Below are positions 2,047-23,768 of a stretch of 23,768 nt of DNA, one piece after another; the stretch's first letter is position 1; each line of letters starts with the position of its first letter. A program made the position numbers and the translations under genes. The stretch lies in IMG/VR virus record IMGVR_UViG_2778261225_000015; one strand, written 5' to 3'. Origin of the DNA: a virus (lineage: Duplodnaviria; Heunggongvirae; Uroviricota; Caudoviricetes). The notes under the pieces were generated by a model that saw nothing but the letters and a program-made list of their open reading frames with translations, was not told the origin of the DNA and searched no databases.

Positions 2047-2654
2047 GCGCTTACTCGCAGGTTATCAATCAGATGAATGGCCGAAGCCGGACAAAACTCA
2101 CCACCGACGACAATCTCCCCGGAGGCATAGGGATATACGGTTAACAGGTCGCCGTCGTAGCAGCTTGCGCCCACATAAGCGCGCCCGGTGGTGCTCAGGC
2201 TGATAGCGAGCCCGGTCAGGTGTCGGCTTGCCGGTTTTGCCCCTTCAATAAGGCGCTCGAGCTCGAGATACATCTCATCGGTGATGCCGGTCTCGAGTAC
2301 GCCAACCACAAGCCGGAAAGTTCCCGGCTCTTCGTTGAGCTCCCACCACTCTTTAACCTCAATCAGATAGCCCAGCGGCTCCACCACGCGCCGTAATGCG
2401 GCGATGGTGCCTTTGTGGGCATGAACATAAAATGCGGAGGCGATAACGCTGCGTTTTGTGGCCTCCGGCCATCTCTCATCCCACCGGTCAACCGAAAATG
2501 CCCACGCCAGATACGGCAGCAGCCGCACCGGGCAAGTGCGCCAGTTCCACAACGTGCGAAGCGGTACCGGCACACGCTCAATATCTGCGGCCGCGCGGGC
2601 GGCGGCGACCTCGAGCAGCGATGAGCCAACAGGCAACAGTCGCTTATTACTCAT
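2043..2654 (-). CDS. I: Baseplate assembly protein I
   Basis: Start taken at ATG 2654 (MSNKRLLPVGSSLLEVAAAR..., matching the recalled P2 gpI N-terminus); the longer ORF to 2777 is in-frame read-through into J. Conserved WAFSVDRWDE.WPEATKR block. Confidence 0.8.
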   Translation of the reverse strand: MSNKRLLPVGSSLLEVAAARAAADIERVPVPLRTLWNWRTCPVRLLPYLAWAFSVDRWDERWPEATKRSVIASAFYVHAHKGTIAALRRVVEPLGYLIEVKEWWELNEEPGTFRLVVGVLETGITDEMYLELERLIEGAKPASRHLTGLAISLSTTGRAYVGASCYDGDLLTVYPYASGEIVVGGEFCPASAIHLIDNLRVSA

Positions 2655-3555
2655 CGGCCCCCCCGTCAGCGATGTGGTATTCGGTGCAACAGGATGCCTG
2701 GTATTTACTGAGCACAATGTCAGCCAGTGGCGCGGCGAGTTCGACACGCTGCACACCTTCGACATGCAGGGCGGCATAGATGGCCGACTGACGAATGTCC
2801 CGGCCCAGTCGCTGCTGTGCGCTGATGTATGCCTTCAGTTTTTCCTCTGCGGCCTGACGGATTGGCTCGGCCTCCGGCCCCGGATAAAAATACAGAGTTG
2901 CATCAATCTGATACGGCACGATTTCAGCACTCTGCACCGTCACCCTGTCGCCAACCGGGCGCACCTCTTCAGCATTTAGTGCTTTTTCAACGATGGTCAG
3001 AAGCTCATCGGATGCGGTGCCGTCATCCTCGCGTGACAGCACGGTGATGGTCACACAGGCCGGTGACGGGCTGACAACCGAGATATCAGCGACCCGACCG
3101 TCGGCGCTGCGACCGTGGTATTCATATGCGCCGACCGGACCAGCCACGCTGAGCCCTTCATAAGCCTGTTGTGCGCGTAACCGTAAATCGGTATCAGATT
3201 CCATGACGGCGGGTGTCGGCGGGATAGTGCTGTCATCGGCGGGCGTCACAATCTGTCGCGCGGTGTTGTTGTTTCCGGCCATCACATCAAGGTCGTTATT
3301 ACTCGCATAAGCCAGTGTGCAGCCTTTCGCCGCATCGTTTACACGCTGACGCCAGATAACCTCCCGATAGGCGTTTTCCTCCAGATACTTCACCAGTGGC
3401 TCAGACTCAAGGGCGAGAGTACGCGCAACAGCGTCCTGTTGTTCTTCAGGGTAAAGCGAGACCAGCGTCGCTTTGCGTTCCGCGAGAATAGTCTCAAAAT
3501 CCAGCGTTTCCACGACGTCAGGCGCGGGGAGCTGGCTCAGGTCGATGTTTGCCAT
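2647..3555 (-). CDS. J: Baseplate assembly protein J
   Basis: 302 aa, the same length as P2 gpJ; position between W and I; overlaps the I start by 8 nt. Confidence 0.85.
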   Translation of the reverse strand: MANIDLSQLPAPDVVETLDFETILAERKATLVSLYPEEQQDAVARTLALESEPLVKYLEENAYREVIWRQRVNDAAKGCTLAYASNNDLDVMAGNNNTARQIVTPADDSTIPPTPAVMESDTDLRLRAQQAYEGLSVAGPVGAYEYHGRSADGRVADISVVSPSPACVTITVLSREDDGTASDELLTIVEKALNAEEVRPVGDRVTVQSAEIVPYQIDATLYFYPGPEAEPIRQAAEEKLKAYISAQQRLGRDIRQSAIYAALHVEGVQRVELAAPLADIVLSKYQASCCTEYHIADGGADE

Positions 3556-8953: not shown

Positions 8954-9712
8954 TTAACCGGTGACTTTCTTCGGGCGTCCCCGCCCTCGTTTCACCGGTG
9001 AATCTTGTTTTTTCGCGGGTGCCTTTTTCGCGGCTTTCGGCGCCGTTTTTTTGACGACGACCGGTTTCGGGTTCAGCTCACGAGTGAGGGTCTCAATGTC
9101 CTTTCTTACCCCGGCGTTGGTGTCGAGCTGTAAGGCGCGTTGCAGGTGCGCCAGTGCATCAGGAAGCTGACCGGCATCACGCAGGGTCAGACCGGTGACC
9201 TTATGCAGTCGGGCGCGCACTTCGTCAGGCATATCGGCGGCATCGGTCAGCCCGATGACCTCGAGCAGTTGCGAAGCGTCGACCGGCTCACCGGCGATAC
9301 GGGCGCGGAGAGCCGCGAGCGCGACCTCTTCGGCCAGCATATAAGGCGCGGGGCGGGAATGATTTTCCGGCATAGACAGGTCAAAACGCAGGGCATAGCG
9401 CGCAATCTCGACAGCGCCGGTGATATCCCCCGCATCCAGACGCCAGAGCATCACCGTCATCAGAATGTCATCCTGTGCGCCGGTGCCGCTTTCCAGTACG
9501 CCAGCGACCCACGGCAGGTACAGCGGGAGTAATTCGCGTTTTTTATCCGCTTTGCGTTCTTTAGAACGAATCGCTGATAGCGTCCGGCGGTCTGCGGCCA
9601 GCTTGACGAGCATTTGCTCGTAAGGTGAGGCATGACGCAGCGGGGCATTGTCCCGCTGCGATGCCCTGACAGCCGAGACCCGCATCGCGTGACGCTGTGC
9701 GGGGGTTGCCAT
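8954..9712 (-). CDS. M: Terminase endonuclease (small) subunit M, with AT-hook-like basic C-terminal tail
   Basis: 252 aa, P2 gpM-like size and position; C-terminus KKTAPKAAKKAPAKKQDSPVKRGRGRPKKVTG. Confidence 0.8.
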   Translation of the reverse strand: MATPAQRHAMRVSAVRASQRDNAPLRHASPYEQMLVKLAADRRTLSAIRSKERKADKKRELLPLYLPWVAGVLESGTGAQDDILMTVMLWRLDAGDITGAVEIARYALRFDLSMPENHSRPAPYMLAEEVALAALRARIAGEPVDASQLLEVIGLTDAADMPDEVRARLHKVTGLTLRDAGQLPDALAHLQRALQLDTNAGVRKDIETLTRELNPKPVVVKKTAPKAAKKAPAKKQDSPVKRGRGRPKKVTG

Positions 9713-11980: not shown

Positions 11981-13750
11981 ATGACCACTACAACCGACAC
12001 ATCACTACTCAACGATCCGCGACGACAGGCCGCGCTTTTGTTCTGGCAGGGCTATTCCGTGCCACAAATCGCGGAACAGTTGCAGGTCAAGCGCCCCACG
12101 GTGCAGAGCTGGAAGCAGCGCGATAAATGGGAAAAAACCGCACCGTTAAACCGGGTCGAGTTCACGCTCGAGGCTCGGCTGATTCAGCTCTATGCAAAGC
12201 CTGACCTGACGGCTCATGACTTTAAGGTCGCGGATTTTCTGGCGCGCCAGATGGAACGCCTCGCGCGGGTCAGTCGTTACGGTCAGACAGGTAACGCAGC
12301 GGATTTAAACCCGAACGTGGCCAACCGCAACAAAGGGGAAAAGAAGAAGCCGAAAAAGAACTTTTTCAGCGAAGAGGCTATCGACAAGCTCGAAGAGATT
12401 TTCCTCGACCAGTCTTTCGACTATCAGCTCGAGTGGTGGCGCGCGGGGCTGGCGCACCGTATCAGGCACATCCTGAAATCACGACAGATTGGAGCGACAT
12501 TCTACTTTGCGCGAGAGGCGCTGTTACAGGCGCTGAAGACCGGCCACAACCAGATATTTTTATCGGCCAGTAAGACACAGGCCTATGTATTTCGAAAATA
12601 CATCATCGCCTTTGCCCGACTGGCTGGCGTCGAGCTCACCGGCGACCCGATTGTGCTCGGCAACAATGGCGCGGAGCTGATGTTTCTCGGCACCAATGCC
12701 AACACGGCGCAGAGCCACAACGGCGACCTGTATGTCGATGAAATTTTCTGGATCCCCAACTTCCAGAAGCTGAAGCGCGTTGCCGGTGGCATGTCTTCAC
12801 AGGAGCATTTGCGCACGACCTATTTTTCGACCCCCTCATCGCTGGCGCACGGTGCCTATCCGTTCTGGTCGGGTGAGCAGTTCAACAAGGGACGCTCAGA
12901 CAAGAGCGAGCGCGTCGATATCGATATCAGTCACGCAGCACTCGCGAAGGGTGTCGCTTGCCCGGACGGCCAGTGGCGGCAGATTGTCACCATCGAGGAC
13001 GCACTCGCTAAAGGGTGCACACTGTTTAACATCGACACGCTGAAGCGCGAGAACAGCGTCGATGAGTTCCGTAATCTGTTTATGTGCGAGTTCGTCGACG
13101 ATAAAGCGTCGGTATTCCCGTTCGAAGAGCTGCAACGCTGCATGGTCGACAGCCTCGAGAAATGGGAGGACTACACGCCATTTGCCGACCGGCCTTTCGG
13201 TCACCGCCCGGTGTGGATTGGTTACGACCCGTCATTACGCGGCGACAGCGCCGGGTGCGTCGTCATCGCGCCGCCAGTCGTCGCCGGTGGACGATTCCGA
13301 ATCCTCGAGCGCCATCAGTGGAAAGGGATGGATTTTGCTCAACAGGCCGAATCCATTCGCGAGCTCACGCAGAAATATACCGTCGAATACATCGGCATCG
13401 ATGCGACCGGGCTCGGACAGGGCGTTTTCCAGTTAGTGCGCTCATTCTACCCGGCAGCGCGTGAAATCCGCTACACGCCGGAAATGAAAACCGCAATGGT
13501 GCTGAAAGCCAAAGACACCATTCGCCGCGGTTGCCTCGAGTACGACGTCAGCGCGACCGATATCACGCAGTCGTTTATGTCTATCCGCAAAACCATGACC
13601 AGCAGCGGGCGCAGCTCGACCTATGAGGCCAGCCGCACCGAGGAAGCCAGTCACGCCGATCTCGCGTGGGCAACCATGCACGTATTAATCAATGAGCCGC
13701 TGACCGCCGCGACCGGCGAACAGTCATCCAGTATTATGGAGTGGAACTAA
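11981..13750 (+). CDS. P: Terminase ATPase (large) subunit P
   Basis: Start taken at ATG 11981 with GAGG 4 nt upstream (the ORF-track start 11957 is a GTG); P2 gpP-like over its whole length; stop TAA overlaps the Q start (TAATG). Confidence 0.9.
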   Translation: MTTTTDTSLLNDPRRQAALLFWQGYSVPQIAEQLQVKRPTVQSWKQRDKWEKTAPLNRVEFTLEARLIQLYAKPDLTAHDFKVADFLARQMERLARVSRYGQTGNAADLNPNVANRNKGEKKKPKKNFFSEEAIDKLEEIFLDQSFDYQLEWWRAGLAHRIRHILKSRQIGATFYFAREALLQALKTGHNQIFLSASKTQAYVFRKYIIAFARLAGVELTGDPIVLGNNGAELMFLGTNANTAQSHNGDLYVDEIFWIPNFQKLKRVAGGMSSQEHLRTTYFSTPSSLAHGAYPFWSGEQFNKGRSDKSERVDIDISHAALAKGVACPDGQWRQIVTIEDALAKGCTLFNIDTLKRENSVDEFRNLFMCEFVDDKASVFPFEELQRCMVDSLEKWEDYTPFADRPFGHRPVWIGYDPSLRGDSAGCVVIAPPVVAGGRFRILERHQWKGMDFAQQAESIRELTQKYTVEYIGIDATGLGQGVFQLVRSFYPAAREIRYTPEMKTAMVLKAKDTIRRGCLEYDVSATDITQSFMSIRKTMTSSGRSSTYEASRTEEASHADLAWATMHVLINEPLTAATGEQSSSIMEWN

Positions 13751-14778
13751 TGAGCAAGAATCGCAACAACAAGCGACAGCAGCCGCGCCCCCAAAGTCAC
13801 ACCGCCGCATCGGCACAGAGCATGGAGGCATTCACCTTTGGCGAGCCGACGCCGGTACTCGATCGCCGCGACATTCTCGATTATGTGGAGTGCATCGACA
13901 ACGGCCAATGGTATGAGCCGCCGGTGAGCTTCTCCGGGCTGGCGAAGAGCATGCGCGCCGCCGTTCATCACAGCTCACCGATTTACGTGAAGCGTAATAT
14001 TCTGGTGTCGACCTACATCCCGCACCCGCTGTTATCGCGTCAGGATTTCAGCCGGTTCGTGCTCGATTATCTGGTATTTGGCAACGCCTTTCTCGAAGAG
14101 CGTCGCGGTCTGACTGGCAAGCCGCTAAAGCTGGAGACCTCACCGGCCAAATATACCCGTCGTGGCGTTGATGATGACGTGTACTGGTATATCCAGTCCT
14201 ACACGCAACCGCACCAGTTTTCGCCCGGTTCCGTCTTCCACCTGCTTGAGCCTGATATTAATCAGGAGCTGTACGGGATGCCGGAATACCTGAGCGCACT
14301 CAATTCAGCCTGGCTGAATGAGTCAGCGACACTGTTTCGTCGCAAGTATTACCAGAACGGCGCGCACGCAGGGTACATCATGTATGTGACCGATGCCGCT
14401 CAGAACAGCACTGACGTCGAAGCGTTGCGAAAGGCGATGCGCGACTCGAAAGGGCTCGGCAATTTTAAGAATCTGTTTTTCTACGCACCGCACGGTAAAC
14501 CGGATGGGATTAAAATTGTGCCGCTGAGCGAAGTCGCGACGAAGGATGATTTTTTTAATATCAAGAAAGTCAGCGCCGCTGACCTGCTCGACGCGCACCG
14601 CATCCCGTTCCAGTTGATGGGCGGCAAGCCTGAGAACGTCGGCTCAGTGGGCGATATTGAGAAAGTGGCAAAAGTATTTGTTCGCAATGAATTAACTCCA
14701 TTGCAAGATAGGATTCGTGAATTAAATCATTGGTTTGGTGATAATTTAATTAAGTTCAAGCCGTATACCTTTGATTAA
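13750..14778 (+). CDS. Q: Portal (capsid portal vertex) protein Q
   Basis: P2 gpQ-like, about 343 aa from ATG 13750 (MSKNRNNKRQQ...), GGAG upstream; the GTG at 13741 is an alternative start. Confidence 0.9.
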   Translation: MSKNRNNKRQQPRPQSHTAASAQSMEAFTFGEPTPVLDRRDILDYVECIDNGQWYEPPVSFSGLAKSMRAAVHHSSPIYVKRNILVSTYIPHPLLSRQDFSRFVLDYLVFGNAFLEERRGLTGKPLKLETSPAKYTRRGVDDDVYWYIQSYTQPHQFSPGSVFHLLEPDINQELYGMPEYLSALNSAWLNESATLFRRKYYQNGAHAGYIMYVTDAAQNSTDVEALRKAMRDSKGLGNFKNLFFYAPHGKPDGIKIVPLSEVATKDDFFNIKKVSAADLLDAHRIPFQLMGGKPENVGSVGDIEKVAKVFVRNELTPLQDRIRELNHWFGDNLIKFKPYTFD

Positions 14779-14834: not shown

Positions 14835-15521
14835 TTATTGCTTATCTTGTGGTGGTGGAACCTCTTTTTCTAAATTATCTACATACTCTCTAATATTGAA
14901 TGCTTTGTTTTTCCTTATTTCGGTAGTGTTAACCTTACTAACACCATCACGAATGTTTTTATTTATGGTGTCTATTAATTTTTGTCTTTCTTGTTCTGTT
15001 TTTATTATTTCACTTAAGAATGACTTTGCGTTTCTTGAAATGTCCGTCTGTCTATTAATGAATAGTATCGCATACACTGAAAAAACCAAGCAAGTAGTCG
15101 TTAGTGCGGAATTAAAAAATACCCCATAATAAACATTAACTTTTGTTATTGACGCTGATAACGTTAGTGATATCAAAAAAAACAAAATCAGGGTAAAAAT
15201 ATATGCAATGGTTACTTTGTTTTTAGTGGTGTCAAGAATGTATGAAGTTCTTTGATCATCAAAGTAATCCTTTATCCTTGATGGAGTGTTTGCGGGGAGT
15301 TCTAACTCCTTTATTTTATCATCAGCATCAATTAGTCGCTTAAACATGAGGCTAATGATTACGGCGCTAAAGACAGAGATCCCCTTTGAAATTATAGGAT
15401 CGAAATCAATTAAAAATGAGTATTTTGAATAAACAAAAACAATAACAAAACCACATATAAGCCCAATTACAATTGAGCTTGCTATGTTTTTTGCATATGT
15501 TTGTAACGTATTGTTTATCAT
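14835..15521 (-). CDS. Integral membrane protein, 228 aa, four predicted TM helices (2 + loop + 2) with cytoplasmic charged tail; second gene of a two-gene cargo operon
   Basis: Hydrophobic segments near residues 13-31, 47-60, 114-135 and 141-165; ATGA start/stop overlap with the upstream gene; AT-rich. Confidence 0.7.
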   Translation of the reverse strand: MINNTLQTYAKNIASSIVIGLICGFVIVFVYSKYSFLIDFDPIISKGISVFSAVIISLMFKRLIDADDKIKELELPANTPSRIKDYFDDQRTSYILDTTKNKVTIAYIFTLILFFLISLTLSASITKVNVYYGVFFNSALTTTCLVFSVYAILFINRQTDISRNAKSFLSEIIKTEQERQKLIDTINKNIRDGVSKVNTTEIRKNKAFNIREYVDNLEKEVPPPQDKQ

Positions 15522-16501
15522 GGGTTAATTACTCCGGTGTCTAGTAAGCGCAATAACCATGAAATCATTTCTTCAGCAACGTTGTCAGCAATTAGCATTC
15601 CATTGCTGTATTCAATATTAACTGAATCCTTTAGTTGAATCTCATCATTCCTGAGTATTCCTGCACCTTTTAACTCAATTGTTAAGCTTTCATCTCTATT
15701 ATCAACCAAGCCTTGTGTAATTTTACGCAACATGTCTTGCTCAGACTCGCTTGCTTTATATTTATACCCAATGGAAATATCAATTGATAGAGATTCCCTG
15801 TCAGGTGAACCATCATTTAAAATGGTATTTTTCTTCATTTCATTAATTCGATGTTCACCTACGAGCGTTTTTAATAGCTCACTAGCTGTATCATCAATAT
15901 TATTTCCATAGTAGGTTAAAGGCAGCTTTAAGCTAACATTTTTTACTATGTTACGTTTTAAAAAATCCGTATTTAGAGACAGGTTGTTTGCCTGTAAAAC
16001 GATGAAGTTATCATCAGTAATAGATAGGTTGTCTTGTAGTATGAAATTTATATAATTTTCAATATCTTTTATTCTAATAGATCTGCTTTGCAGAATTATG
16101 AAGTGGTTCTTAATCACACCAATGTATGCAATGCTTTCTAAATACTCTCTAGCATTCCCACTTGATAAATTTAATGTCTCGTATGTTAAAGCTGTTTTAG
16201 CATAATCGCTAACAGAGAAAACAGGAATGCTACTACCCGGTTCAATATAGACAATTTCCGCAAAAAACATTCCATGAATTTCTTTGCTATTTGAAAGAAC
16301 CATGTGGGCGTGAGCAGCGACATTACCATTATTATCTGGAACATCAGGGAAGAATAATCTATCAGCAACATTTGGAACCTTGATTTTCACAAGGTTTGCC
16401 AACCTATCTTGCAGGTTTGATGTTAAAAGAGCATCCTTTTTAGGAAGCATTATTGCATGGCGATAATGCAGCATTTTACTCTTATAATCTTGCGTTGCCA
16501 T
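15518..16501 (-). CDS. Uncharacterised soluble protein, 327 aa; first gene of a two-gene cargo operon at the portal/cos hotspot
   Basis: ATG 16501 preceded by AGAGGGA; no Walker A, HxH or GxSxG motif seen by eye; AT-rich codon usage unlike the phage backbone. Confidence 0.75.
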   Translation of the reverse strand: MATQDYKSKMLHYRHAIMLPKKDALLTSNLQDRLANLVKIKVPNVADRLFFPDVPDNNGNVAAHAHMVLSNSKEIHGMFFAEIVYIEPGSSIPVFSVSDYAKTALTYETLNLSSGNAREYLESIAYIGVIKNHFIILQSRSIRIKDIENYINFILQDNLSITDDNFIVLQANNLSLNTDFLKRNIVKNVSLKLPLTYYGNNIDDTASELLKTLVGEHRINEMKKNTILNDGSPDRESLSIDISIGYKYKASESEQDMLRKITQGLVDNRDESLTIELKGAGILRNDEIQLKDSVNIEYSNGMLIADNVAEEMISWLLRLLDTGVINP

Positions 16502-16572: not shown

Positions 16573-16591
16573 ATGCTATCCCCGCCACGCC
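16573..16591. other. Putative cos site (19-nt cohesive-end sequence of a 186-like phage)
   Basis: ATGCTATCCCCGCCACGCC; its reverse complement GGCGTGGCGGGGATAGCAT differs at one position from the phage 186 cohesive end as I recall it (GGCGTGGCGGGGAAAGCAT; P2 is GGCGAGGCGGGGAAAGCAC). Confidence 0.55.
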
Positions 16592-16872: not shown

Positions 16873-17055
16873 CTATTCAGCCTTATAGAAAATTTCGTCT
16901 TTTTCTTCGTCGCTTTCGCTGTTAGCTAGGCCGGCAATTAGAGTTAGTGCCAGCTTCAAATCTGCCGGTTTGCAGTTGGCAATAAGAGATATCTCGGCGA
17001 TAAATTGCACACAAGCCCACTTTTGCTGCGTTCGGCTGAAATGTTTCCCAACCAT
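16873..17055 (-). CDS. Small SOS-regulated protein, 60 aa, acidic C-terminus; candidate Tum-like antirepressor (function inferred from position and regulation only)
   Basis: ATG 17055 preceded by GGGAGGG with 5-nt spacing; consensus LexA box 21 bp upstream; lies between replication gene A and cos, where 186 carries its SOS-inducible tum gene. Confidence 0.55.
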   Translation of the reverse strand: MVGKHFSRTQQKWACVQFIAEISLIANCKPADLKLALTLIAGLANSESDEEKDEIFYKAE

Positions 17056-17075: not shown

Positions 17076-17095
17076 TACTGTGTATTTATACAGTA
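17076..17095. promoter_or_regulatory. LexA operator (SOS box)
   Basis: TACTGTGTATTTATACAGTA fits CTGT-N8-ACAG with the flanking TA..TA of the E. coli consensus TACTGTATATATATACAGTA; immediately upstream of the RBS of ORF 16873..17055. Confidence 0.7.
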
Positions 17096-17244
17096 TAACG
17101 TATTGGCAAAAGATGGGAAGAGAAAAAGTGAATCGGGTAGGTGTTGTATGTACATGATATGGATGTAAATTAATCACCTGTGAGTTTTGATGTTTCTGCC
17201 AGCACCGCAACACGATTAAGGATTTCCCTAGGCTTTGCCTGAAG

Positions 17245-19392
17245 CTATGGCGCTGCGGAGAAAATTTCACCTTTGGACGTTCCACGCAACCATTTACCGT
17301 TAATACAACTTTTGCCACCTGCTATCAGGTGCAGGGCTTCTCCCCGGCTGATGGTAATGCCGGTTGTCAGACGGATCTCGTCGATAGTTTTTTCTATCGG
17401 AGCACTTTGCTCATCTGTTCCGTGGATAAATTTCGGCCTCTTAGGTGGCTTTGGTTTCCTGATTCGGTTCGTCAGCTCTCGCCTTTCACGTCGACTCAGG
17501 GGTTTTGATAAATCGAGTTCCGGTGGATCGCTTTCGCTTCCCGTACAGTTATTGACAGAACTCCAAGGGACGGCGAAGCCGTCCTTAACGTCAACGGCCA
17601 AATCAACGGCACGCTTCGGAACAATTTTCCATTGCGTGAGCCGGGTTAAAATCGGAGTGCCAACACCAACGGTGGAGTCGTACACACCACGAATGCAGAC
17701 AGTTTCCTCACCATACTGGTTAAACTCGGTGCGCGGTTCATAAAGCGTACGCACCTGCAAATCATCGCGACGGACAAACGGACCGCCCTGCGCATTAACA
17801 TAGCCAGCCCAATCACCGGCATCGGCGGCATCATGGACAGCCGCAAACTCAACACTTAGACCGTGCGCGGTCTCGGTATCTGCAAGGCGACGCAATTCAC
17901 GATAAACAGTCACTGGTGCACCACCGATAAACTGAAACTGACGAATATGCCAGCGCGCCGCCCATGCTGAAACGGCGGGGGCTGTCTCTTTCAACAGTTC
18001 ACCGTTTTCGTCATCGGTTTCGTCATCAAGAGCGTAACCGTCGATATTTTTCGAGATGTATTTCGCGACGTAGCCGGTTGCGCTGCCTTTCTCCGGATCA
18101 ATGGCTTCTGCGTGGAAACGTGCTTTTTTGGCTTTATCGCTTTTGAGTTCGTGAAAATCTTCTTGCCATGCGTAGTCCCGAATAATGCCACGAACGGTAT
18201 CGACGTCCTCCGGGAGCATAAACATCAGCATATGCCAGTGAGGGCACCCGTCATGGTGAGGCTCTGCAACGCGGATCCCGAAAATACGAATGTCTTCACG
18301 GTGGAGTTTTGCGCGAATGCGTGCCCACAGGCCAGTGAGATAACATTGCGTATCGGATGGATTGGATCCATTCCATTTGGTGTTACGGTAGCCTGCCTTT
18401 GTCGTGGCGTGATATTTAGACGGTGCGGTCAGGGTGTAAAACTCACCAACATAACCGAGCTCATTGCAGATATTTTCAAACCCACGAATGCGGGTCATAA
18501 GCTCACAGCGTCGAATCGCAGAGTTAGCGACTGAACCATCGTATTTTTCAATCAGGCTGATACGGTTGCCGTCTTCGTCTTCAAGCTCCAGACCTTTGAG
18601 AAATTCGCGCGTCCGGCGCTTCTGTTCACGCCAGTCTGTCACGCAGTTTTTACTCGCGTAGACATGTTTTTTCTTACTGACATTTCCGATTGCGATTTGC
18701 AGGTGTTCGCGCCACGCAGCCGCAATGCGACGCAGACGGCCACGCCACCATTTTTCCGAAAACATACGGGCAATTGCTGGAGCGACTTTATCCTGATCCC
18801 AATATTTATCCCGCGACCGTTCCCACTCTGGTGGCATTATCCTGAATTGCTGAGTGATGAAACCAGCATGCATATACCAGGCATTTAATGTCTCCAGTTC
18901 ACACATGTCAGAATCGTCAATGTTGACTAACTCTGCACGGATAAAATCGGCGATATCAGCAGCCAGCAGGTCGATGTCGGCGCGTGCCATATCCGGGAGT
19001 CGGTTGTATCTGGCGACTATGTTGACCATGCGAGACGCCAGATATTGCATAAGCTGAGTATCGAAATGACAACCGAAAACAGCGGCTGATACGTTGCTGT
19101 TAATACCGGTACACTCGTATTTTTTTGCGACCAGTTCAAAACGCGGCAATGCCTTTTTGCAGAAGCTTATTAAAAAAGCATTGGCTCGTTGACTGCCCTG
19201 ATTTTGCTCCAGCACCGCAGCAGTGCGATAAACGTCAAAACGTACACACTCGGGCTGGAGGGAAAGCACCTTTCTAGCATGCAGCAAAGCCGCGAGCATA
19301 CGGTCGCGGCGATACTGTTGGTCGTAGGTAAGATATGGACTGGCTATTGCCGACCGTGGAGCATTCCACGGAAACGCGAATTGAACAGCCAA
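17245..19392 (-). CDS. A: Replication initiation protein A (rolling-circle replication endonuclease, P2/186 gpA family)
   Basis: 715 aa, gpA-like size and position; the first codon is TTG at 19392 with GGGGGA 7 nt upstream, directly after the stop of the upstream zinc-finger gene; no in-frame ATG near the 5' end. Confidence 0.85.
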   Translation of the reverse strand: MAVQFAFPWNAPRSAIASPYLTYDQQYRRDRMLAALLHARKVLSLQPECVRFDVYRTAAVLEQNQGSQRANAFLISFCKKALPRFELVAKKYECTGINSNVSAAVFGCHFDTQLMQYLASRMVNIVARYNRLPDMARADIDLLAADIADFIRAELVNIDDSDMCELETLNAWYMHAGFITQQFRIMPPEWERSRDKYWDQDKVAPAIARMFSEKWWRGRLRRIAAAWREHLQIAIGNVSKKKHVYASKNCVTDWREQKRRTREFLKGLELEDEDGNRISLIEKYDGSVANSAIRRCELMTRIRGFENICNELGYVGEFYTLTAPSKYHATTKAGYRNTKWNGSNPSDTQCYLTGLWARIRAKLHREDIRIFGIRVAEPHHDGCPHWHMLMFMLPEDVDTVRGIIRDYAWQEDFHELKSDKAKKARFHAEAIDPEKGSATGYVAKYISKNIDGYALDDETDDENGELLKETAPAVSAWAARWHIRQFQFIGGAPVTVYRELRRLADTETAHGLSVEFAAVHDAADAGDWAGYVNAQGGPFVRRDDLQVRTLYEPRTEFNQYGEETVCIRGVYDSTVGVGTPILTRLTQWKIVPKRAVDLAVDVKDGFAVPWSSVNNCTGSESDPPELDLSKPLSRRERRELTNRIRKPKPPKRPKFIHGTDEQSAPIEKTIDEIRLTTGITISRGEALHLIAGGKSCINGKWLRGTSKGEIFSAAP

Positions 19393-19911: not shown

Positions 19912-20112
19912 TTAGCTATAGCCAAATACAACGGCAGGTTTACTTTTCAACTGGCTGATAATTTCAGCTTTCAGGCCATCCTTAAACTCTTTGCAGCATT
20001 CCCACTCAGGGTCAACCCGAAGTATTGCACCGTCGCGAGTTTTAATTTCAAAACCGTCTTCCATATTCGGAATCATGGCTCCTAAAACAATTCTTAATTC
20101 ATCGCGTGACAT
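19912..20112 (-). CDS. Hypothetical early-region protein, about 66 aa
   Basis: Start taken at internal ATG 20112 (MSRDELRIVLG...) with AAGGGA upstream; the ORF-track start at 20151 would overlap the neighbouring ORF. Confidence 0.5.
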   Translation of the reverse strand: MSRDELRIVLGAMIPNMEDGFEIKTRDGAILRVDPEWECCKEFKDGLKAEIISQLKSKPAVVFGYS

Positions 20113-20359
20113 GTTTAATCCCTTTAATAATAAAGTGGACAATACGAACAATTAAAAAGCCTGACGACTTCGGCGGCTTTGTTTCCAGCCCTTTTAATAA
20201 TTCGGACTGTGAGCAGCACGGATGCCAGCGCCTGCCATCTTTCCCCGCAATCCAGCCGTGACCGTAATGCATGCCGGGACTTTGCTTAACGAGCAGAGAA
20301 GCGAATGAAGGTTCATTTTTCAGCACAGGTACCTCATACCAAACCGAATGTTGCGCCAA
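20099..20359 (-). CDS. Hypothetical small protein downstream of cII (at the position of 186 fil/dhr); start uncertain
   Basis: ORF begins with TTG at 20359 inside the cII 3' end; alternative ATG at 20272 has a weak RBS. Low confidence that it is expressed as annotated. Confidence 0.25.
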   Translation of the reverse strand: MAQHSVWYEVPVLKNEPSFASLLVKQSPGMHYGHGWIAGKDGRRWHPCCSQSELLKGLETKPPKSSGFLIVRIVHFIIKGIKHVTR

Positions 20360-20843
20360 TGCCGGTCATGGTGTCGACGACGCTCGACATTGCCGGGTTA
20401 GCCTGGAGGCGAGCCTGTAACGCCAGCGCCGACAATGACAGCATGCGAATACCGGCGTTAACGCTTTCAACCATGTTGTGTTTACGAGCAGAGGTCAGGC
20501 GTTCATCAGATGCAGCACCGTTCGCCAGTTCGCCGAGTTCGCTCATTGCGCGCATGACATAGGACTGCAATTTATCTTTAGCCAACTCATTAACCGGCAC
20601 ACAAGGTAGACAATGGATCTGCGCCAGAAAGCCATCAACGAGGGTTGAGTCTTCGGTCAGATCAGTCAGCAGCCATAACTCAGGCGGTGTGAACTGGTGA
20701 GGCTGTTCCGGGTTAAGTTTGTTACGTAACGTCTGAACATTCATACCCGCATGCTCGGCCAGCTTCGCCATATTGTGACGCTGCGCGAAAGCCCGGCACG
20801 CTTCGTCATAGTGGGGATGTTTGGAAATTTGAAAATCAAACAT
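20334..20843 (-). CDS. cII: CII-type lysogeny-establishment transcriptional activator (phage 186 CII-like)
   Basis: 169 aa, the length I recall for 186 CII; N-terminus MFDFQISKHPHYDEACRAFAQRHNMAKLAE matches 186 CII as recalled; GAGGG upstream of ATG 20843. Confidence 0.85.
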   Translation of the reverse strand: MFDFQISKHPHYDEACRAFAQRHNMAKLAEHAGMNVQTLRNKLNPEQPHQFTPPELWLLTDLTEDSTLVDGFLAQIHCLPCVPVNELAKDKLQSYVMRAMSELGELANGAASDERLTSARKHNMVESVNAGIRMLSLSALALQARLQANPAMSSVVDTMTGIGATFGLV

Positions 20844-20878
20844 GTATTTTCCCTCGCTATCTTAAATAATCGAGTTTC

Positions 20879-21103
20879 TTAGGCTGCCACATAGCGGCAA
20901 TTAAGGCCCTGAGCCAAGAGTCGAGCACGGAAGGCAACCATATTGATACGCGCAGCACCACCGTCTTTTTTACGGGGCATCAGGAGGAGATCTCCATCAG
21001 CAACCATCTGTTTTACAGTGCGAATGCTGTAGCCGTAGCATTCAGCAAATTCGTCATAAGTCATGAGATCCGCGCCGGACGGGATTGCAATTTGTGGAGT
21101 CAT
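20879..21103 (-). CDS. apl: Apl/Cox-like excisionase and switch repressor (small HTH protein)
   Basis: 74 aa, first gene of the lytic transcript divergent from cI; HTH-like segment MTYDEFAECYGYSIRTVKQMVADG. Confidence 0.7.
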   Translation of the reverse strand: MTPQIAIPSGADLMTYDEFAECYGYSIRTVKQMVADGDLLLMPRKKDGGAARINMVAFRARLLAQGLNCRYVAA

Positions 21104-21189
21104 AAGTAATCATCTCCGGTTACTAGTTGGTTTGGTGCATTGGCGTGCATTTTTAAATTCAAGCGAGAATCTTATCTCGAAAAAGCGAG
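21104..21189. promoter_or_regulatory. Lysis/lysogeny switch region between apl and cI (promoters and operators)
   Basis: 86-bp gap between divergent apl and cI with direct repeats AAGCGAGA (21161..21168 and 21183..21190), a near-palindrome CGAGAATCTTATCTCG (21164..21179) and GTGCAT repeats (21135..21150). Confidence 0.5.
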
Positions 21190-21807
21190 ATGTCAATTTG
21201 GATTTTCGCGATAACTCGGATTTTTAAGATGAAATTGGATGAGTTAGAGGGTGGAAAAGCAGTGCTGCAGCGCATCCTTGATGCGTATGGCTTCACCATG
21301 CAAAAACAACTCGGTGACTTGCATGAGCTGTCATCGGGAACAATCAGCACTTGGGTTCGGCGTAATTTTTTCCCCGGGGATGTTGTTGTTGCATGCGCTT
21401 TGGACACTGGGGTGTCTTTACGTTGGTTGGCAACAGGGAAGGGGAACAAGTTTGATGCAGACCATACTAATGGCGAAATGAAAACATTAGACCGATTGGA
21501 TATTGTTGCAGGTAAGCTGCAGGAAAACGGTCATTGGATTGTTGATGCTAACCTCTTTTCTACTGAGGCGACGCACCCCAATTACATAGTAAAAGGCCAG
21601 CAGTCCTGGATAGTTGATTTTGATATGACTGATATAGCAAATGGGCGATGGATGCTCAGTATCGACGGGGATCATGATGTCTATGACGTTGCAAGGATCC
21701 CGGGGAACAGAATAAAAGTCAGCAACGCTGATGCCGATTTTCAATGCTCAGTTTCTGAGGTTAAGTGTATTGGCATGGTGCTGGTAAGCCTGACGAAATC
21801 TAGCTAA
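21190..21807 (+). CDS. cI: CI-type immunity repressor
   Basis: HTH-containing N-terminal domain (LQRILDAYGFTMQKQLGDLHELSSGTISTWV) plus C-terminal oligomerisation domain; immediately upstream of int on the same strand as in 186. Alternative start ATG 21229. Confidence 0.8.
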   Translation: MSIWIFAITRIFKMKLDELEGGKAVLQRILDAYGFTMQKQLGDLHELSSGTISTWVRRNFFPGDVVVACALDTGVSLRWLATGKGNKFDADHTNGEMKTLDRLDIVAGKLQENGHWIVDANLFSTEATHPNYIVKGQQSWIVDFDMTDIANGRWMLSIDGDHDVYDVARIPGNRIKVSNADADFQCSVSEVKCIGMVLVSLTKSS

Positions 21808-21811
21808 CGAT

Positions 21812-22849
21812 ATGAGTGTTAAAAAACTGACATCGGGTGAATGGCTTTGTGATTTCCGCGTCGACGGGGCTGAAAGTCGCCGCGTGCGTAAGAAGTTTTC
21901 AACCAAAGGTGAAGCCGTTGCCTTCGAGCAGTATTACCGAGAAGAGGCACAAAATAAGCCGTGGATGGGTGAGAAGGAAGACCGTCGACGTTTGAGTGAA
22001 CTGATTGAGCTGTGGCATAACCTCCATGGCCAGTCGCTCGCTGCCAGCAAATCGCGATTGGCCAAACTGCACATTGTTTGCCGGGGTCTTGGCGACCCAA
22101 TCGCTACCCAGCTTACCGCCAAAGATTTCGCCCATTATCGGGATAAACGTCTCAAGGGTGAAATCGACAATGGCTATCACGCAAATTCTGAAAAGTGGAT
22201 TGCGAAACCTGTGACTGTGAACCGGGAACAACAGTACCTCGAAGCTGTTTTCAATGAGCTGAAGCGCTTGGGTGAGTGGAGTCTGCCAAATCCTCTCGAA
22301 GGTGTGCGAGTTTTCAAAGAAGCCGAAAAAGAAATGTCTTGGCTTACCCAGCCTCAAATTCGCGAAGTGCTCAATGCTTGTGAGTCATACGGGAAAATTT
22401 ATTTAACCCGTATCGTCAAAGTGTGCTTAGCGACTGGTGCTCGATGGAGCGAGGCCGAGCGTCTTACTCGTTCACAGCTTTCACCCCACAAGTTGACTTT
22501 CACTAAAACGAAGGGAAAGAAGAATCGTACAGTACCGATCCCTCGGTGGCTATATGACGAGTTGGCTCCTTTACAGGGAAAAATGTTCCACCCCTGCTAT
22601 CAGGAGTTCAAGAAAATGCTCGCTCTGACCGATATAGAGTTAGCTGAAGGGCAAAAAACGCATGTGTTACGTCATACATTTGCGAGTCACTTTATGATGA
22701 ATGGTGGGAACATTTTAGTACTGCAACGAATCTTGGGCCATTCTAACATTAGGGAAACCATGAGATACGCTCATTTTGCACCAGATCATTTAGAAGAAGC
22801 TGTAACTCTTAACCCTATTTCTAATTTAACAGGATTATATGATGAGTGA
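21812..22849 (+). CDS. int: Tyrosine-recombinase integrase
   Basis: 345 aa; C-terminal catalytic block HVLRHTFASHFMMNGGNILVLQRILGHSNIRETMRYAHF (R..H-x-x-R...Y signature). Confidence 0.9.
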   Translation: MSVKKLTSGEWLCDFRVDGAESRRVRKKFSTKGEAVAFEQYYREEAQNKPWMGEKEDRRRLSELIELWHNLHGQSLAASKSRLAKLHIVCRGLGDPIATQLTAKDFAHYRDKRLKGEIDNGYHANSEKWIAKPVTVNREQQYLEAVFNELKRLGEWSLPNPLEGVRVFKEAEKEMSWLTQPQIREVLNACESYGKIYLTRIVKVCLATGARWSEAERLTRSQLSPHKLTFTKTKGKKNRTVPIPRWLYDELAPLQGKMFHPCYQEFKKMLALTDIELAEGQKTHVLRHTFASHFMMNGGNILVLQRILGHSNIRETMRYAHFAPDHLEEAVTLNPISNLTGLYDE

Positions 22850-23768
22850 GCCAACCATCGAAACACCTCCAAGAATGACCGAGGCCAAAGTCATTAGGGT
22901 ACGCACTCGTGGTTTTTATAATTTAGTTGAGATAGGTGCAGTCTTTCTAGTTGCAAATGTAATTTTTGCTACAGGGATATTAGACTCAACCTTTTATTAT
23001 TTATTTCCCAGTGCGAGAGCAGATCTTACACATTTGCCGAGCTTTATCAGGTCAATATTCGCAGTGTCATTTGTAATCGTTTACACCATTATCTATGGTG
23101 TGTCTCCAATCCAAAGAATGTTTATGAGAATTACAGGGAGTGATTCAGTCGACAAATCATCGATGTTTAATATTGTCGATATTATAAATGAGATAAAACT
23201 ACTCAAGAAGGCTCAAGAGGAAAGGGCTGCTGCTGATGAAGATGAATCTCTGGATTTTTATCTTAAAGGTTTGATTAATAGCTCTGAAGGTCTTGCGAAA
23301 AACATATATTCTCGCGGTAGTCTTTATTTATTAGTCGGTGTTTGTTTTGCAATAGTTGGATTAGGTTTCTTCTATTCTCAATCACATGTAATTGATGCTA
23401 AGGATGATGCGGTAACCAAGGTAATGTATCTTCTCCCTAATTTTGGCGTGTTGATTTTCTTGGAGTTAATCGCATTTTTCTTTTTGAAGCAATATCGGGT
23501 TACGATGGATGAGTTTCGCTATTACGAGGCAATAAAACGTTCACGTGAGGAAAGCTATGCCATTATAAAGCTTGTAATGGCTAGCCAGAAAGATATCGAT
23601 ATGATAGACCTTCTGGATAAAATTAATTTTAGCTCAAGAGTTGGAAAACTAGAATCAGGGCAGACTACTGAAATTATTGAAGCAAGAAAATTAGACAAAA
23701 ATGAACTTGAAACCTTAGTAAAGCTTACCGAGGCAGTTGCGGGTAAGATTGGACAGGGAAATAAGTAG
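22839..23768 (+). CDS. Integral membrane protein, 309 aa, four predicted TM helices with cytoplasmic loop and tail; cargo gene downstream of int
   Basis: AGGA upstream of tandem ATGs at 22839/22842; overlaps the int stop by 11 nt; AT-rich; stop codon is the last three bases of the window. Confidence 0.7.
   Translation: MMSEPTIETPPRMTEAKVIRVRTRGFYNLVEIGAVFLVANVIFATGILDSTFYYLFPSARADLTHLPSFIRSIFAVSFVIVYTIIYGVSPIQRMFMRITGSDSVDKSSMFNIVDIINEIKLLKKAQEERAAADEDESLDFYLKGLINSSEGLAKNIYSRGSLYLLVGVCFAIVGLGFFYSQSHVIDAKDDAVTKVMYLLPNFGVLIFLELIAFFFLKQYRVTMDEFRYYEAIKRSREESYAIIKLVMASQKDIDMIDLLDKINFSSRVGKLESGQTTEIIEARKLDKNELETLVKLTEAVAGKIGQGNK

Follow-up and report, generated by a model that had tools for sequence, protein, structure and literature searches.

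A 186-type, heteroimmune mosaic of the lysis/lysogeny switch predicted in a P2-family prophage of Escherichia coli

Results

A switch laid out on the 186 plan

We analysed a 23,768-nt stretch of DNA from a tailed phage (IMG/VR record IMGVR_UViG_2778261225_000015; hereafter the window), in which an integrated E. coli prophage of the P2 family very probably has its lysis/lysogeny switch, laid out on the plan of coliphage 186 (Eganvirus ev186) rather than that of P2 and assembled as a modular mosaic, the working of which we infer from homology and anatomy. The locus is best described as a '186-type, heteroimmune mosaic'. It is an ordinary, previously uncharacterised immunity variant of the well-known 186 system and, judged by its sequence, a heteroimmune modular mosaic of an already known sort.

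The division of regulatory regions into a P2 type and a 186 type is established (PMC3448106). The locus falls on the 186 side, with a cII gene, a CI of about 190 aa instead of a P2 C repressor, and a putative antirepressor under LexA control. As in 186, the genes run int-cI on one strand and apl-cII on the other, with fil and dhr downstream. The original prediction, which had favoured a 186-type over a P2-type switch, is thus supported by gene content, gene order, Pfam domains and cis elements; by homology, the CII-dependent establishment of lysogeny and the SOS induction that it proposed would also be expected. A P2-type switch would instead pair a short C repressor with Cox, lack CII and not be SOS-inducible. 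The late genes are indeed like those of P2-family phages, and the best solved relative of the small helix-turn-helix (HTH) protein is P2 Cox. However, the locus has a full-length cII, a 192-aa repressor with both domains of 186 CI (the P2 C repressor is roughly half the size of CI; PMC3448106), and a LexA-box promoter with TumA. Moreover, Cox and Apl have a common origin but C and CI do not (PMC3448106). Gene content therefore refutes a P2-type switch, to which we assign a negligible probability.

CII and its operator resemble those of 186

The cII gene (20334..20843, minus strand) is the second gene of the lytic operon, immediately 3' of the apl-like gene, and encodes the activator for lysogeny establishment. 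Its 169-aa ORF opens with MFDFQISKHPHYDEACRAFAQRHNMAKLAE, exactly the peptide from which it had been recognised as essentially 186 CII. Pairwise alignment confirmed this, giving 93% identity over all 169 residues without a gap, the HTH region and C-terminal region 146-169 included, and the protein scored 160.7 bits against PF06892 (cut-off 26). CII is nearer to 186 than to Salmonella phage PSP3 (Eganvirus PsP3), since PSP3 CII is only 76% identical.

Within the first 27 nt of cII lies the CII operator (20817..20843), formed by the inverted 7-mers ATGTTTG (20817-23) and CAAACAT (20837-43), 20 bp apart centre to centre. The CII binding site annotated in the 186 record (L001 5782-5809) has the same two half-sites, which are also invariant in the related loci L006 and L007. 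We take the geometry of the site from the annotation of the 186 record. A candidate -10 region for the CII-dependent promoter pE (20858..20870, reading towards cI) can be placed only tentatively, from its position relative to the CII site and by analogy with 186 pE, at TATCTT (20858-63) or AATAAT (20865-70). In 186, the TACAAT of pE begins 10 nt past CAAACAT, whereas the best candidate here is 4 bp farther from the CII site. This stretch is not homologous to 186 in sequence, and a consensus promoter scan of the pE region reported no site and no convincing -10. The gene and its operator move as a single unit, here joined to a foreign pE core.

A conserved Apl-like gene and its candidate binding sites

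Directly upstream of cII on the same strand, where a small HTH gene had been predicted, lies a 74-aa ORF (20879..21103, minus strand), the first gene of the lytic operon. Its product is an Apl-like protein of the Cox/Apl family, shorter than 186 Apl (87 aa) and 32% identical to it across 72 residues. It matched the PHROG profile phrog_575, 'Cox-like excisionase and repressor', with an E value of 3.1e-20, and a profile-profile comparison with 186 Apl (hhalign) gave an E value of 3.8e-5 at a probability of 71%. The best PDB profile match was P2 Cox (4LHF, E 0.018), and the top fold matches of a structure model (pLDDT 71.6) were P2 Cox (4LHF, first) and Pukovnik Xis. In Pfam, the score against Phage_Cox (17.5 bits) was under the cut-off of 27.5, as were all matches to HTH_17 and Rv2175c, and an NCBIfam search returned no family for this protein or for CI. 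These profile and fold matches place the protein in the Cox/Apl family, within which it belongs to a separate conserved subfamily. RefSeq names the gene 'hypothetical', 'MerR family' or 'QIAIP family'. PSP3 gp30 (117 aa) gave no direct match to the window, but in related loci the Apl-like protein has close homologues to which the C-terminal part of gp30 is distantly related (~35-40%).

Apl sites are direct repeats of 10-11 bp between face-to-face promoters (PMC7498355). Two copies of GTGCATT, spaced by 10 bp and lying between pL and pR (21135..21152, plus strand), are candidate sites for the Apl-like protein, and both their location and their direct-repeat spacing fit the Apl/Cox site rule (PMC7498355). 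All 10 loci with this Apl-like protein (that of the window and nine others) carry TGCATTGGCGTGCATT without change, while its flanks vary. Only these two repeats are clear and a third is not evident, compared with seven in 186, where Apl requires at least three adjacent sites (PMC7498355). A search of the attL region (L002 8970-9172) for GTGCATT-type repeats found no convincing array. Across the related loci, conservation of the Apl-like protein (84-99%) follows that of Int (76-95%) and not that of CI (48-77%). The protein probably binds the GTGCATT repeats and probably serves as an excisionase with Int.

The repressor combines a PSP3-like N-terminus with a divergent C-terminus

Facing cII and the apl-like gene, as originally described, is a CI-like repressor gene (cI, 21229..21807, plus strand) followed by int (21812..22849, plus strand). 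CI has the length of 186 CI (192 aa) and the same two domains, with an HTH at the N-terminus and an oligomerisation domain at the C-terminus (PF07022, 85.4 bits; PF16452, 86.9 bits; both above cut-off). It aligned end to end with 186 CI (E 2e-29) at 28% identity, and with PSP3 CI at 47.5% over the whole length. The two domains behaved very differently: the N-terminal domain has the recognition helix of PSP3 CI and is 83% identical to its PSP3 counterpart and 38% identical to that of 186, whereas the corresponding figures for the C-terminal domain are 33% and 22%. PSP3 CI is annotated as a 286-aa protein with two tandem N-terminal domains; here there is a single one. The first ATG of the ORF, at 21190, would give a protein of 205 aa, but it falls in the predicted -35 hexamer of pR, and we therefore favour the RefSeq start at 21229; conservation with relatives also begins there, and the upstream start was rejected.

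The int gene lies 3' of cI in the lysogenic operon and encodes a tyrosine integrase (PF24624 and PF00589), 53% identical to 186 Int and 76.5% identical to PSP3 Int. Downstream of int and overlapping it is an ORF of 309 aa, for which tblastn against phages found no match. Given the Pfam scores of CII (PF06892), CI (PF07022 and PF16452) and Int (PF24624 and PF00589), the pattern of ORFs is not a product of chance.

Predicted face-to-face promoters and candidate CI operators

The apl-cI intergenic region, 125 bp here and 129 bp in 186, has a predicted anatomy like that of its 186 counterpart. The predicted early lytic promoter pR (21169..21196, minus strand) has a -35 of TTGACA (21196-91), a spacer of 16 nt and a -10 of TAAGAT (21174-69). 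It matched 10 of 12 consensus positions in a promoter scan and lies in the same place as 186 pR in the alignment, and the position of its -35 is kept in 10 loci. The candidate lysogenic promoter pL (21085..21113, plus strand; TTGCAA at 21085-90, 17 nt, AATCAT at 21108-13) was not detected by the consensus scan, because only 8 of 12 positions match and it falls under the threshold. It is, however, the position-for-position equivalent of the annotated 186 pL (TTGCGA, 17 nt, CATGAT). As in 186, its -35 lies inside the start of the apl gene, where, opposite conserved Q-I-A-I codons, it reads TTGCAA in eight and TTGTAA in two of the 10 related loci. The two promoters would therefore face each other, pR being predicted by the scan and pL by its position in 186 and the conservation of its -35. 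Their predicted start points overlap by about 42 bp, compared with 62 bp in 186.

The primary CI operator candidate, O1 (21174..21191), is a perfect palindrome, ATCTCG-AAAAAG-CGAGAT, in the pR spacer, where 186 also has an inverted repeat (TATCTC-N8-GAGATA). It is followed by O2 (21195-212; AATTTG-GATTTT-CGCGAT, two mismatches) and O3 (21213-230; AACTCG-GATTTT-TAAGAT, exact), the latter overlapping the cI start codon. CI operators of 186 lie two helical turns apart, with additional distal sites about 300 bp away (PMC3675496), and the centres of O1 and O2 are separated by 21 bp, the two-turn spacing of the 186 pR operators (PMC3675496). A distal candidate (20859..20876; ATCTTA-AATAAT-CGAGTT) lies between cII and the apl-like gene, over the pE core, as does the distal operator FR of 186 (ATTCAC...GTGAAT); it begins 16 nt past CAAACAT, compared with 15 nt for FR. 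This site fits AWCTYR-N6-YRAGWT exactly and repeats O3 in inverted orientation, and in a Franconibacter locus CGAG is changed to CAAG at the equivalents of both. The window holds three exact matches to AWCTYR-N6-YRAGWT, all within the switch region, the consensus having been derived from the same three sites that it recovers. When two mismatches were allowed, matches were at chance level (24 found, 26.8 expected), no FL-like CI site was found within cI, and looking for more copies of the operator gave none beyond the three exact sites.

Boundaries of the mosaic and relation to the 186 immunity group

The closest overall switch regions are those of nine uncharacterised prophages, one in Citrobacter sp. 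OP27 (L006) and the others in related Enterobacterales (L007-L011, L016, L022 and L023), with ~82% nucleotide identity over 20196-22800; these loci were compared with 2.5-kb flanks only, a span that does not reach tum. Compared with the window, the Citrobacter locus is 99% identical in the Apl-like protein, 94% in Int, 90% in CII and 77% in CI. The CI C-terminal domain is 66% identical. The palindrome at the position of O1 differs in each related locus, with both arms changed symmetrically; it reads ACCTTA...TAAGCT in L006 and ACCTTA...TAAGGT in L007, both unlike the window. In L006-L008, the closest relatives, the pR palindromes differ although the recognition helix of CI is near-identical and its N-terminal domain 91-92% identical, so a different palindrome does not necessarily imply a different specificity.

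The resemblance to 186 DNA breaks off exactly at the cII ATG (20845); that to L010 DNA is lost at 21161 and returns at 21808. These boundaries suggest an exchangeable immunity cassette, made up of the pR operator and cI and with limits at about 21161 and 21808, within a constant frame of promoters and Apl. By sequence affinity the mosaic is of diverse origins: cII and its operator resemble 186, the CI N-terminal domain, TumA and Int resemble PSP3, and the Apl-like gene with its putative sites makes up a separate conserved module. With different immunity parts in the mosaic, the prophage is expected to be heteroimmune to 186.

Could the locus nevertheless be simply the switch of 186, in the same immunity group and with orthologues of its CI, Apl and Tum? 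The identities of CII (93%), Fil (88%), Dhr (97%) and replication protein A (86%), 18 of 19 cos bases and a retained p95 promoter all point that way. However, the homology of the DNA stops at the cII ATG, CI and Apl are only 28% and 32% identical, the operator sequences differ, and the SOS-controlled 60-aa ORF gave no BLASTP alignment with 186 Tum. Membership of the 186 immunity group would call for the same operators and a near-identical CI (at least 95% identity, the figure reported for P2-type C repressors in PMC3448106 and applied here by analogy), whereas CI here is 28% identical overall (38% in the N-terminal domain) and the palindromes differ. Identity with the 186 switch is thus refuted at the sequence level, and we regard it as exceedingly improbable. 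The original prediction had itself named low identity to 186 CII, Apl or CI as grounds for its rejection, a test that CII passes but that Apl and CI do not. Apl and CI accordingly stand as members of their families but not as 186 orthologues at the level of immunity.

A predicted SOS promoter upstream of a PSP3-type tumA

A LexA-regulated ORF and a cos-like sequence, both part of the original case for a 186-like phage, are present. The latter (16573-16591) has 18 of the 19 bases of the annotated 186 cos. The former is preceded by a p95-like promoter (17078..17119, minus strand; TTCCCA, 16 nt, TATACT), matched in the promoter scan, with the LexA box CTGTATAAATACACAG at 17078-17093, a perfect CTGT-N8-ACAG. 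Promoter and LexA box align with p95 and the LexA site of 186, and also with PSP3. The ORF itself (tumA, 16873..17055, minus strand) encodes 60 aa that are 83% identical to PSP3 TumA; the SOS gene, predicted to be under LexA control as claimed, is of the PSP3 TumA type rather than 186 Tum. A Smith-Waterman alignment with residues 13-42 of 186 Tum scored 52, compared with 24 +/- 4 for shuffled sequences, none of 2000 reaching 52. In PSP3 and Fels-2, tum is split into two halves, of which the upstream one is the antirepressor (PMC3121763). Unlike PSP3, which has a DinI-like tumB, and unlike 186 Tum with its DinI-like half, this prophage has TumA only: tblastn of the window found neither a TumB/DinI-like sequence nor orf97, and orf69 of 186 is also absent. 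TumA is a candidate for antirepression in this prophage.

TumA and the repressor might have been acquired as separate modules and be mismatched, in which case induction would not depend on SOS or would take another route. The unequal resemblance to PSP3 (83% for TumA, 47.5% for CI and 33% for its C-terminal domain) would fit such a history. However, the CI N-terminal domain agrees with its PSP3 counterpart at 83% of positions and throughout the recognition helix, and it is DNA binding by CI that 186 Tum blocks, according to the passage of PMC3121763 that cites Shearwin 1998. Furthermore, TumA occurs in exactly 10 records of the phage collection, the same 10 that give the best CI matches and carry this type of N-terminal domain. 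We therefore consider a mismatch improbable and favour a TumA that acts on the resident CI.

Lytic genes and the integrity of the prophage

The early lytic genes 3' of cII, fil and dhr (19912..20326, minus strand), encode proteins 88% and 97% identical to 186 Fil and Dhr, and Fil also matched Pfam Phage_186_Fil. Replication protein A is 86% identical to 186 A, but in RefSeq its gene is a pseudogene with an internal stop, and the prophage could therefore be defective, its switch a relic with genes intact by descent that maintains repression without induction or replication. A ends 24 codons short of the PSP3-type protein end, and the missing TumB/DinI partner would be in keeping with decay. However, the C-terminal tail of A is of the PSP3 type, and 186 A, itself shorter (694 aa), has a different ending at this point, which suggests that the tail can be dispensed with. 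We rejected a frameshift in A, because the PSP3-type tail is cut by a stop codon and it is 186 that ends differently. In addition, all switch ORFs are full length and their cis elements conserved, the cos site and the portal and terminase genes are present, and positions 20800-23768 recur at 100% identity in 11 complete E. coli genomes, which come from different hosts, and at 99.8% in two more. A relic thus seems unlikely.

The prophage differs from 186 in its attachment site, which adjoins yfiB and does not lie in a tRNA-Ile gene. There was no tRNA gene at the site and no Rfam match anywhere in the window, and PADLOC returned no match for the cargo ORFs.

Discussion

The anatomy described above suggests how the switch might work. 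In the lysogen, CI would bind the 18-bp inverted repeat in the pR spacer (21174-21191), together with the related neighbouring (21195-21230) and distal (20859-20876) sites. This would shut pR and leave cI-int and the overlapping 309-aa ORF to be transcribed from pL. An active pR would interfere with pL, since the two face-to-face promoters start about 40 bp from each other. After infection, pR would direct synthesis of the Apl-like protein, CII, Fil, Dhr and the replication genes. CII would then bind the two 7-mers in the first 27 nt of its own gene and activate pE, lying to the left and reading rightward, and the resulting cI-int RNA would establish lysogeny. The Apl-like winged-helix factor would act probably on the GTGCATT repeats between pL and pR, and probably as an excisionase with Int. 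Finally, DNA damage would remove LexA from the p95-like promoter, and the 60-aa TumA so produced would inactivate CI, probably through its N-terminal domain.

Prophages that differ in their CI C-terminal domain and pR operator have the same type of N-terminal domain (83-92% identical, with the same recognition helix), together with TumA. We therefore raise a speculative proposal, which we think clearly less likely to be right than wrong. In this natural three-module chimera TumA may match the type of the CI N-terminal domain and not the immunity type, such that one SOS-induced TumA could derepress several heteroimmune 186-like prophages in trans, while the Apl-like module and TGCATTGGCGTGCATT could form an immunity-independent unit for excision and control against pL. 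If this were true, the cross-derepression by TumA would resemble the cross-talk reportedly demonstrated for the Gifsy and Fels-1 prophages.

The main gain of the analysis is the correct class of the prophage, 186-type, probably SOS-inducible and heteroimmune to 186, which should help annotation. Existing knowledge of 186 is left unchallenged by these observations. The locus and its relatives offer natural chimeras of the well-studied 186 switch and, with them, ready tests of the modularity of the 186 circuit. In RefSeq, tumA is named 'hypothetical'.

Gene content of the switch region

The window is contained in a P2-family prophage of Escherichia coli; its stretch 20800-23768 recurs at 100% identity in 11 complete E. 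coli genomes and at 99.8% in two more, adjoining yfiB in these matching genomes. All the open reading frames of the original prediction were confirmed: cII (20334-20843, minus strand; 169 aa, N-terminus MFDFQISKHPHYDEACRAFAQRHNMAKLAE), a small HTH gene directly upstream (the 74-aa Apl-like ORF, 20879-21103, minus strand), an opposed repressor gene, cI (21229-21807; 192 aa), and downstream of it int (21812-22849). The first ATG of the repressor ORF (21190) lies within the predicted pR -35 hexamer. Starting at 21229, as RefSeq does, yields a protein as long as 186 CI, and similarity to the relatives also sets in there; we adopted 21229.

Proteins were compared with the annotated phage 186 record and with PSP3. 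CII was 93% identical to that of 186 (157/169, no gaps) and 76% to that of PSP3, and high values against 186 were also obtained for Fil (88%), Dhr (97%) and A (86%, with a PSP3-type C-terminal tail). Int gave 53% against 186 and 76.5% against PSP3. CI reached only 28% over 174 aa with 186 (E 2e-29) and 47.5% with PSP3, and the Apl-like protein 32% over 72 aa with 186 Apl (pairwise E 2e-5), with no match to PSP3 gp30. The proposed close likeness to 186 therefore held for CII, but not for Apl or CI.

Pfam assigned CII to PF06892 and CI to PF07022 plus PF16452. The Apl-like protein fell under the Pfam Cox cut-off; PHROG 575, 'Cox-like excisionase and repressor', matched its full length (E 3e-20), and a profile of 23 homologues aligned with 186 Apl in hhalign (E 3.8e-5) and had P2 Cox as its top PDB match. 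The top fold matches of its AlphaFold model (pLDDT 71.6) were P2 Cox and Pukovnik Xis. By these comparisons, the gene content is that of a 186-type regulatory region, as predicted from the presence of cII and this type of CI, and not of the clearly distinct P2 type (int-C-cox, no cII) (PMC3448106). The switch is an uncharacterised example of a well-known kind, and all statements on its mechanism rest on homology and sequence anatomy.

The switch as a mosaic

DNA matches to sequenced phages, 186 included, all end at position 20845, the cII start codon. To the right, the nearest relatives are uncharacterised prophages of Citrobacter sp. OP27 and other Enterobacterales. (One such locus, CACSKA010000005.1, labelled Chryseobacterium sp. 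18061, is an enterobacterial 186-like prophage, ~82% identical to the window and near-identical to the Citrobacter one; the assembly is probably contaminated or mislabelled.) Identity across ten related loci was 84-99% for the Apl-like protein, 76-95% for Int, 48-77% for CI and 56-90% for CII. In one of them (L010) similarity breaks off at 21161 and returns at 21808, so the pR operator and cI behave as a unit that can be swapped, set between int and an Apl module that stays constant.

The N-terminal domain of CI is 83% identical to that of PSP3 CI, with the same recognition helix (SSGTISTWVRR), and 38% to that of 186, whereas the C-terminal domain reaches only 33% and 22%, respectively. PSP3 CI as annotated (286 aa; 2198-3058 of its locus, L004) carries two tandem N-terminal HTH domains (residues 16-76 and 102-170), each of which aligns with the one such domain of the window protein; a two-part match of ~830 nt is also present in most of the more distant loci (L009-L011, L013-L023).

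As judged from these comparisons, the switch is a mosaic rather than the 186 switch: only cII is '186', and CI with its operators, the Apl-like protein, Int and the antirepressor derive from other lineages. Heteroimmunity to 186 is therefore expected of the prophage.

Promoters and operators

The inverted 7-mers ATGTTTG (20817-20823) and CAAACAT (20837-20843) are identical to those in the annotated CII-site stretch of 186. They lie inside cII, so activator and predicted site were inherited together. Together with the similarity of CII, this anatomy supports the predicted CII-dependent establishment of lysogeny. The pE core, downstream of the CII site, is part of the foreign module; neither -10 candidate, TATCTT (20858-20863) or AATAAT (20865-20870), can be assigned with confidence. 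In 186 TACAAT begins 10 nt past CAAACAT.

At the aligned position of 186 pR we predict pR (21196-21169; TTGACA, 16 nt, TAAGAT). A candidate pL (TTGCAA 21085-21090, 17 nt, AATCAT 21108-21113) is positionally homologous to annotated 186 pL (TTGCGA, 17 nt, CATGAT). Its -35 is kept in the ten loci (TTGCAA in 8, TTGTAA in 2) and lies opposite the codons for Q-I-A-I in the apl-like gene, part of a conserved N-terminal motif, Q-I-A-I-P (21085-21095; alignment A5). The motif and the predicted promoter element would therefore constrain each other; 186 Apl has E-I-A-I-I opposite TTGCGA. The predicted start points face each other ~42 bp apart, less than the 62 bp calculated from the promoter coordinates of the 186 record; the distance falls within the 40-60 bp usual among P2-like phages (PMC7498355).

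The pR spacer holds a candidate CI operator, the perfect 18-bp palindrome ATCTCG-AAAAAG-CGAGAT (21174-21191), where 186 has TATCTC-N8-GAGATA. Two further candidates, over the cI start (21213-21230) and in the cII-apl spacer (20859-20876), also show the half-site pattern AWCTYR, which was built from these three sites and in relaxed form occurs at chance level. The latter begins 16 nt past CAAACAT, compared with 15 nt for FR, a distal CI site of 186. A weaker site (21195-21212) lies 21 bp from the palindrome; in 186, too, operators are reported to be two helical turns apart (PMC3675496). In all nine other loci the pR spacer is also palindromic, each differently, with both arms changed symmetrically and the flanking -35 constant; this pattern offers independent support for the operator candidates. 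Some of the variation may lie within one CI specificity, because the closest relatives share almost the same recognition helix.

Two copies of GTGCATT, spaced 10 bp apart, lie between pL and pR, and the block TGCATTGGCGTGCATT is invariant in 10/10 loci, as expected for sites of a conserved Apl-like protein. Only two clear repeats of these putative Apl-type sites were seen, and no matching array was found in attL.

Predicted SOS control and the putative antirepressor

A p95-like promoter, which can be aligned base for base with 186 p95 and with the corresponding promoter of PSP3, contains a perfect LexA box (17078-17093), supporting the predicted SOS induction through a LexA-controlled gene. 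Downstream is the candidate antirepressor gene tumA (16873-17055; 60 aa, 83% identical to PSP3 TumA). BLASTP of this ORF against 186 Tum gave no similarity; a local alignment of residues 15-44 with Tum 13-42 scored 52, against 24 ± 4 for shuffles, none of 2000 reaching 52. In PSP3 and Fels-2 tum is split in two, and it is the upstream part that acts as antirepressor (PMC3121763). The window lacks the DinI-like half entirely. In the phage collection, the ten TumA-encoding records coincide exactly with those that gave the ten best CI matches, which fits TumA being matched to this CI N-terminal domain. It is conceivable, though rather unlikely, that this domain type is common to otherwise heteroimmune prophages and TumA matched to it; if so, cross-induction between them would be possible.

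Other loci in and next to the window

The predicted cos-like sequence was found at 16573-16591 (18/19 bases). Between cos and the portal gene Q (13741-14778) lies a 1.8-kb insert (14835-16501, minus strand) with two overlapping ORFs of unknown function, where 186 has <200 bp. The 327-aa ORF (15518-16501, minus strand) matches phrog_3482 (unknown function). Relatives with 23-26% identity occur in Stx2, SfIV and Acinetobacter prophages, and one of them is annotated 'DefenseFinder protein'. The 228-aa ORF (14835-15521, minus strand) is hydrophobic. Neither matched Pfam or PADLOC. The position corresponds to a known cargo hotspot of P2-like phages; the two could thus be an uncharacterised defence pair.

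Replication gene A (17245-19392, minus strand; 715 aa) ends at a TAG, and RefSeq flags it a pseudogene ('internal stop'). PSP3 A runs 24 residues further, and the in-frame sequence beyond the stop is still PSP3-tail-like. The A protein of 186 is shorter still (694 aa) and terminates at this same point in another reading frame, so the tail is probably not required.

A 309-aa membrane ORF (22839-23768, plus strand), hydrophobic in its N-terminal and central parts, overlaps the end of int, stop codon included, by 11 nt, and would thus be part of the lysogenic operon, co-transcribed with cI-int in the lysogen. Its sole match was phrog_5157 (unknown function): neither Pfam nor PADLOC gave a family, and tblastn against 50,697 phage records found nothing. 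Together with the int 3' half it is 99.8% identical in E. coli E2348/69. No tRNA gene was found at the attachment site, and no Rfam family matched anywhere in the window. The ORF is the final gene before attL and yfiB. In the attL region, which lies immediately past the end of the window (8970-9172 of L002, a locus reaching yfiB), between this ORF and the yfiB terminator, GCATGTTTAT occurs twice, at 8991-9000 and 9056-9065, 65 bp apart; the pair may be Int arm-type sites.
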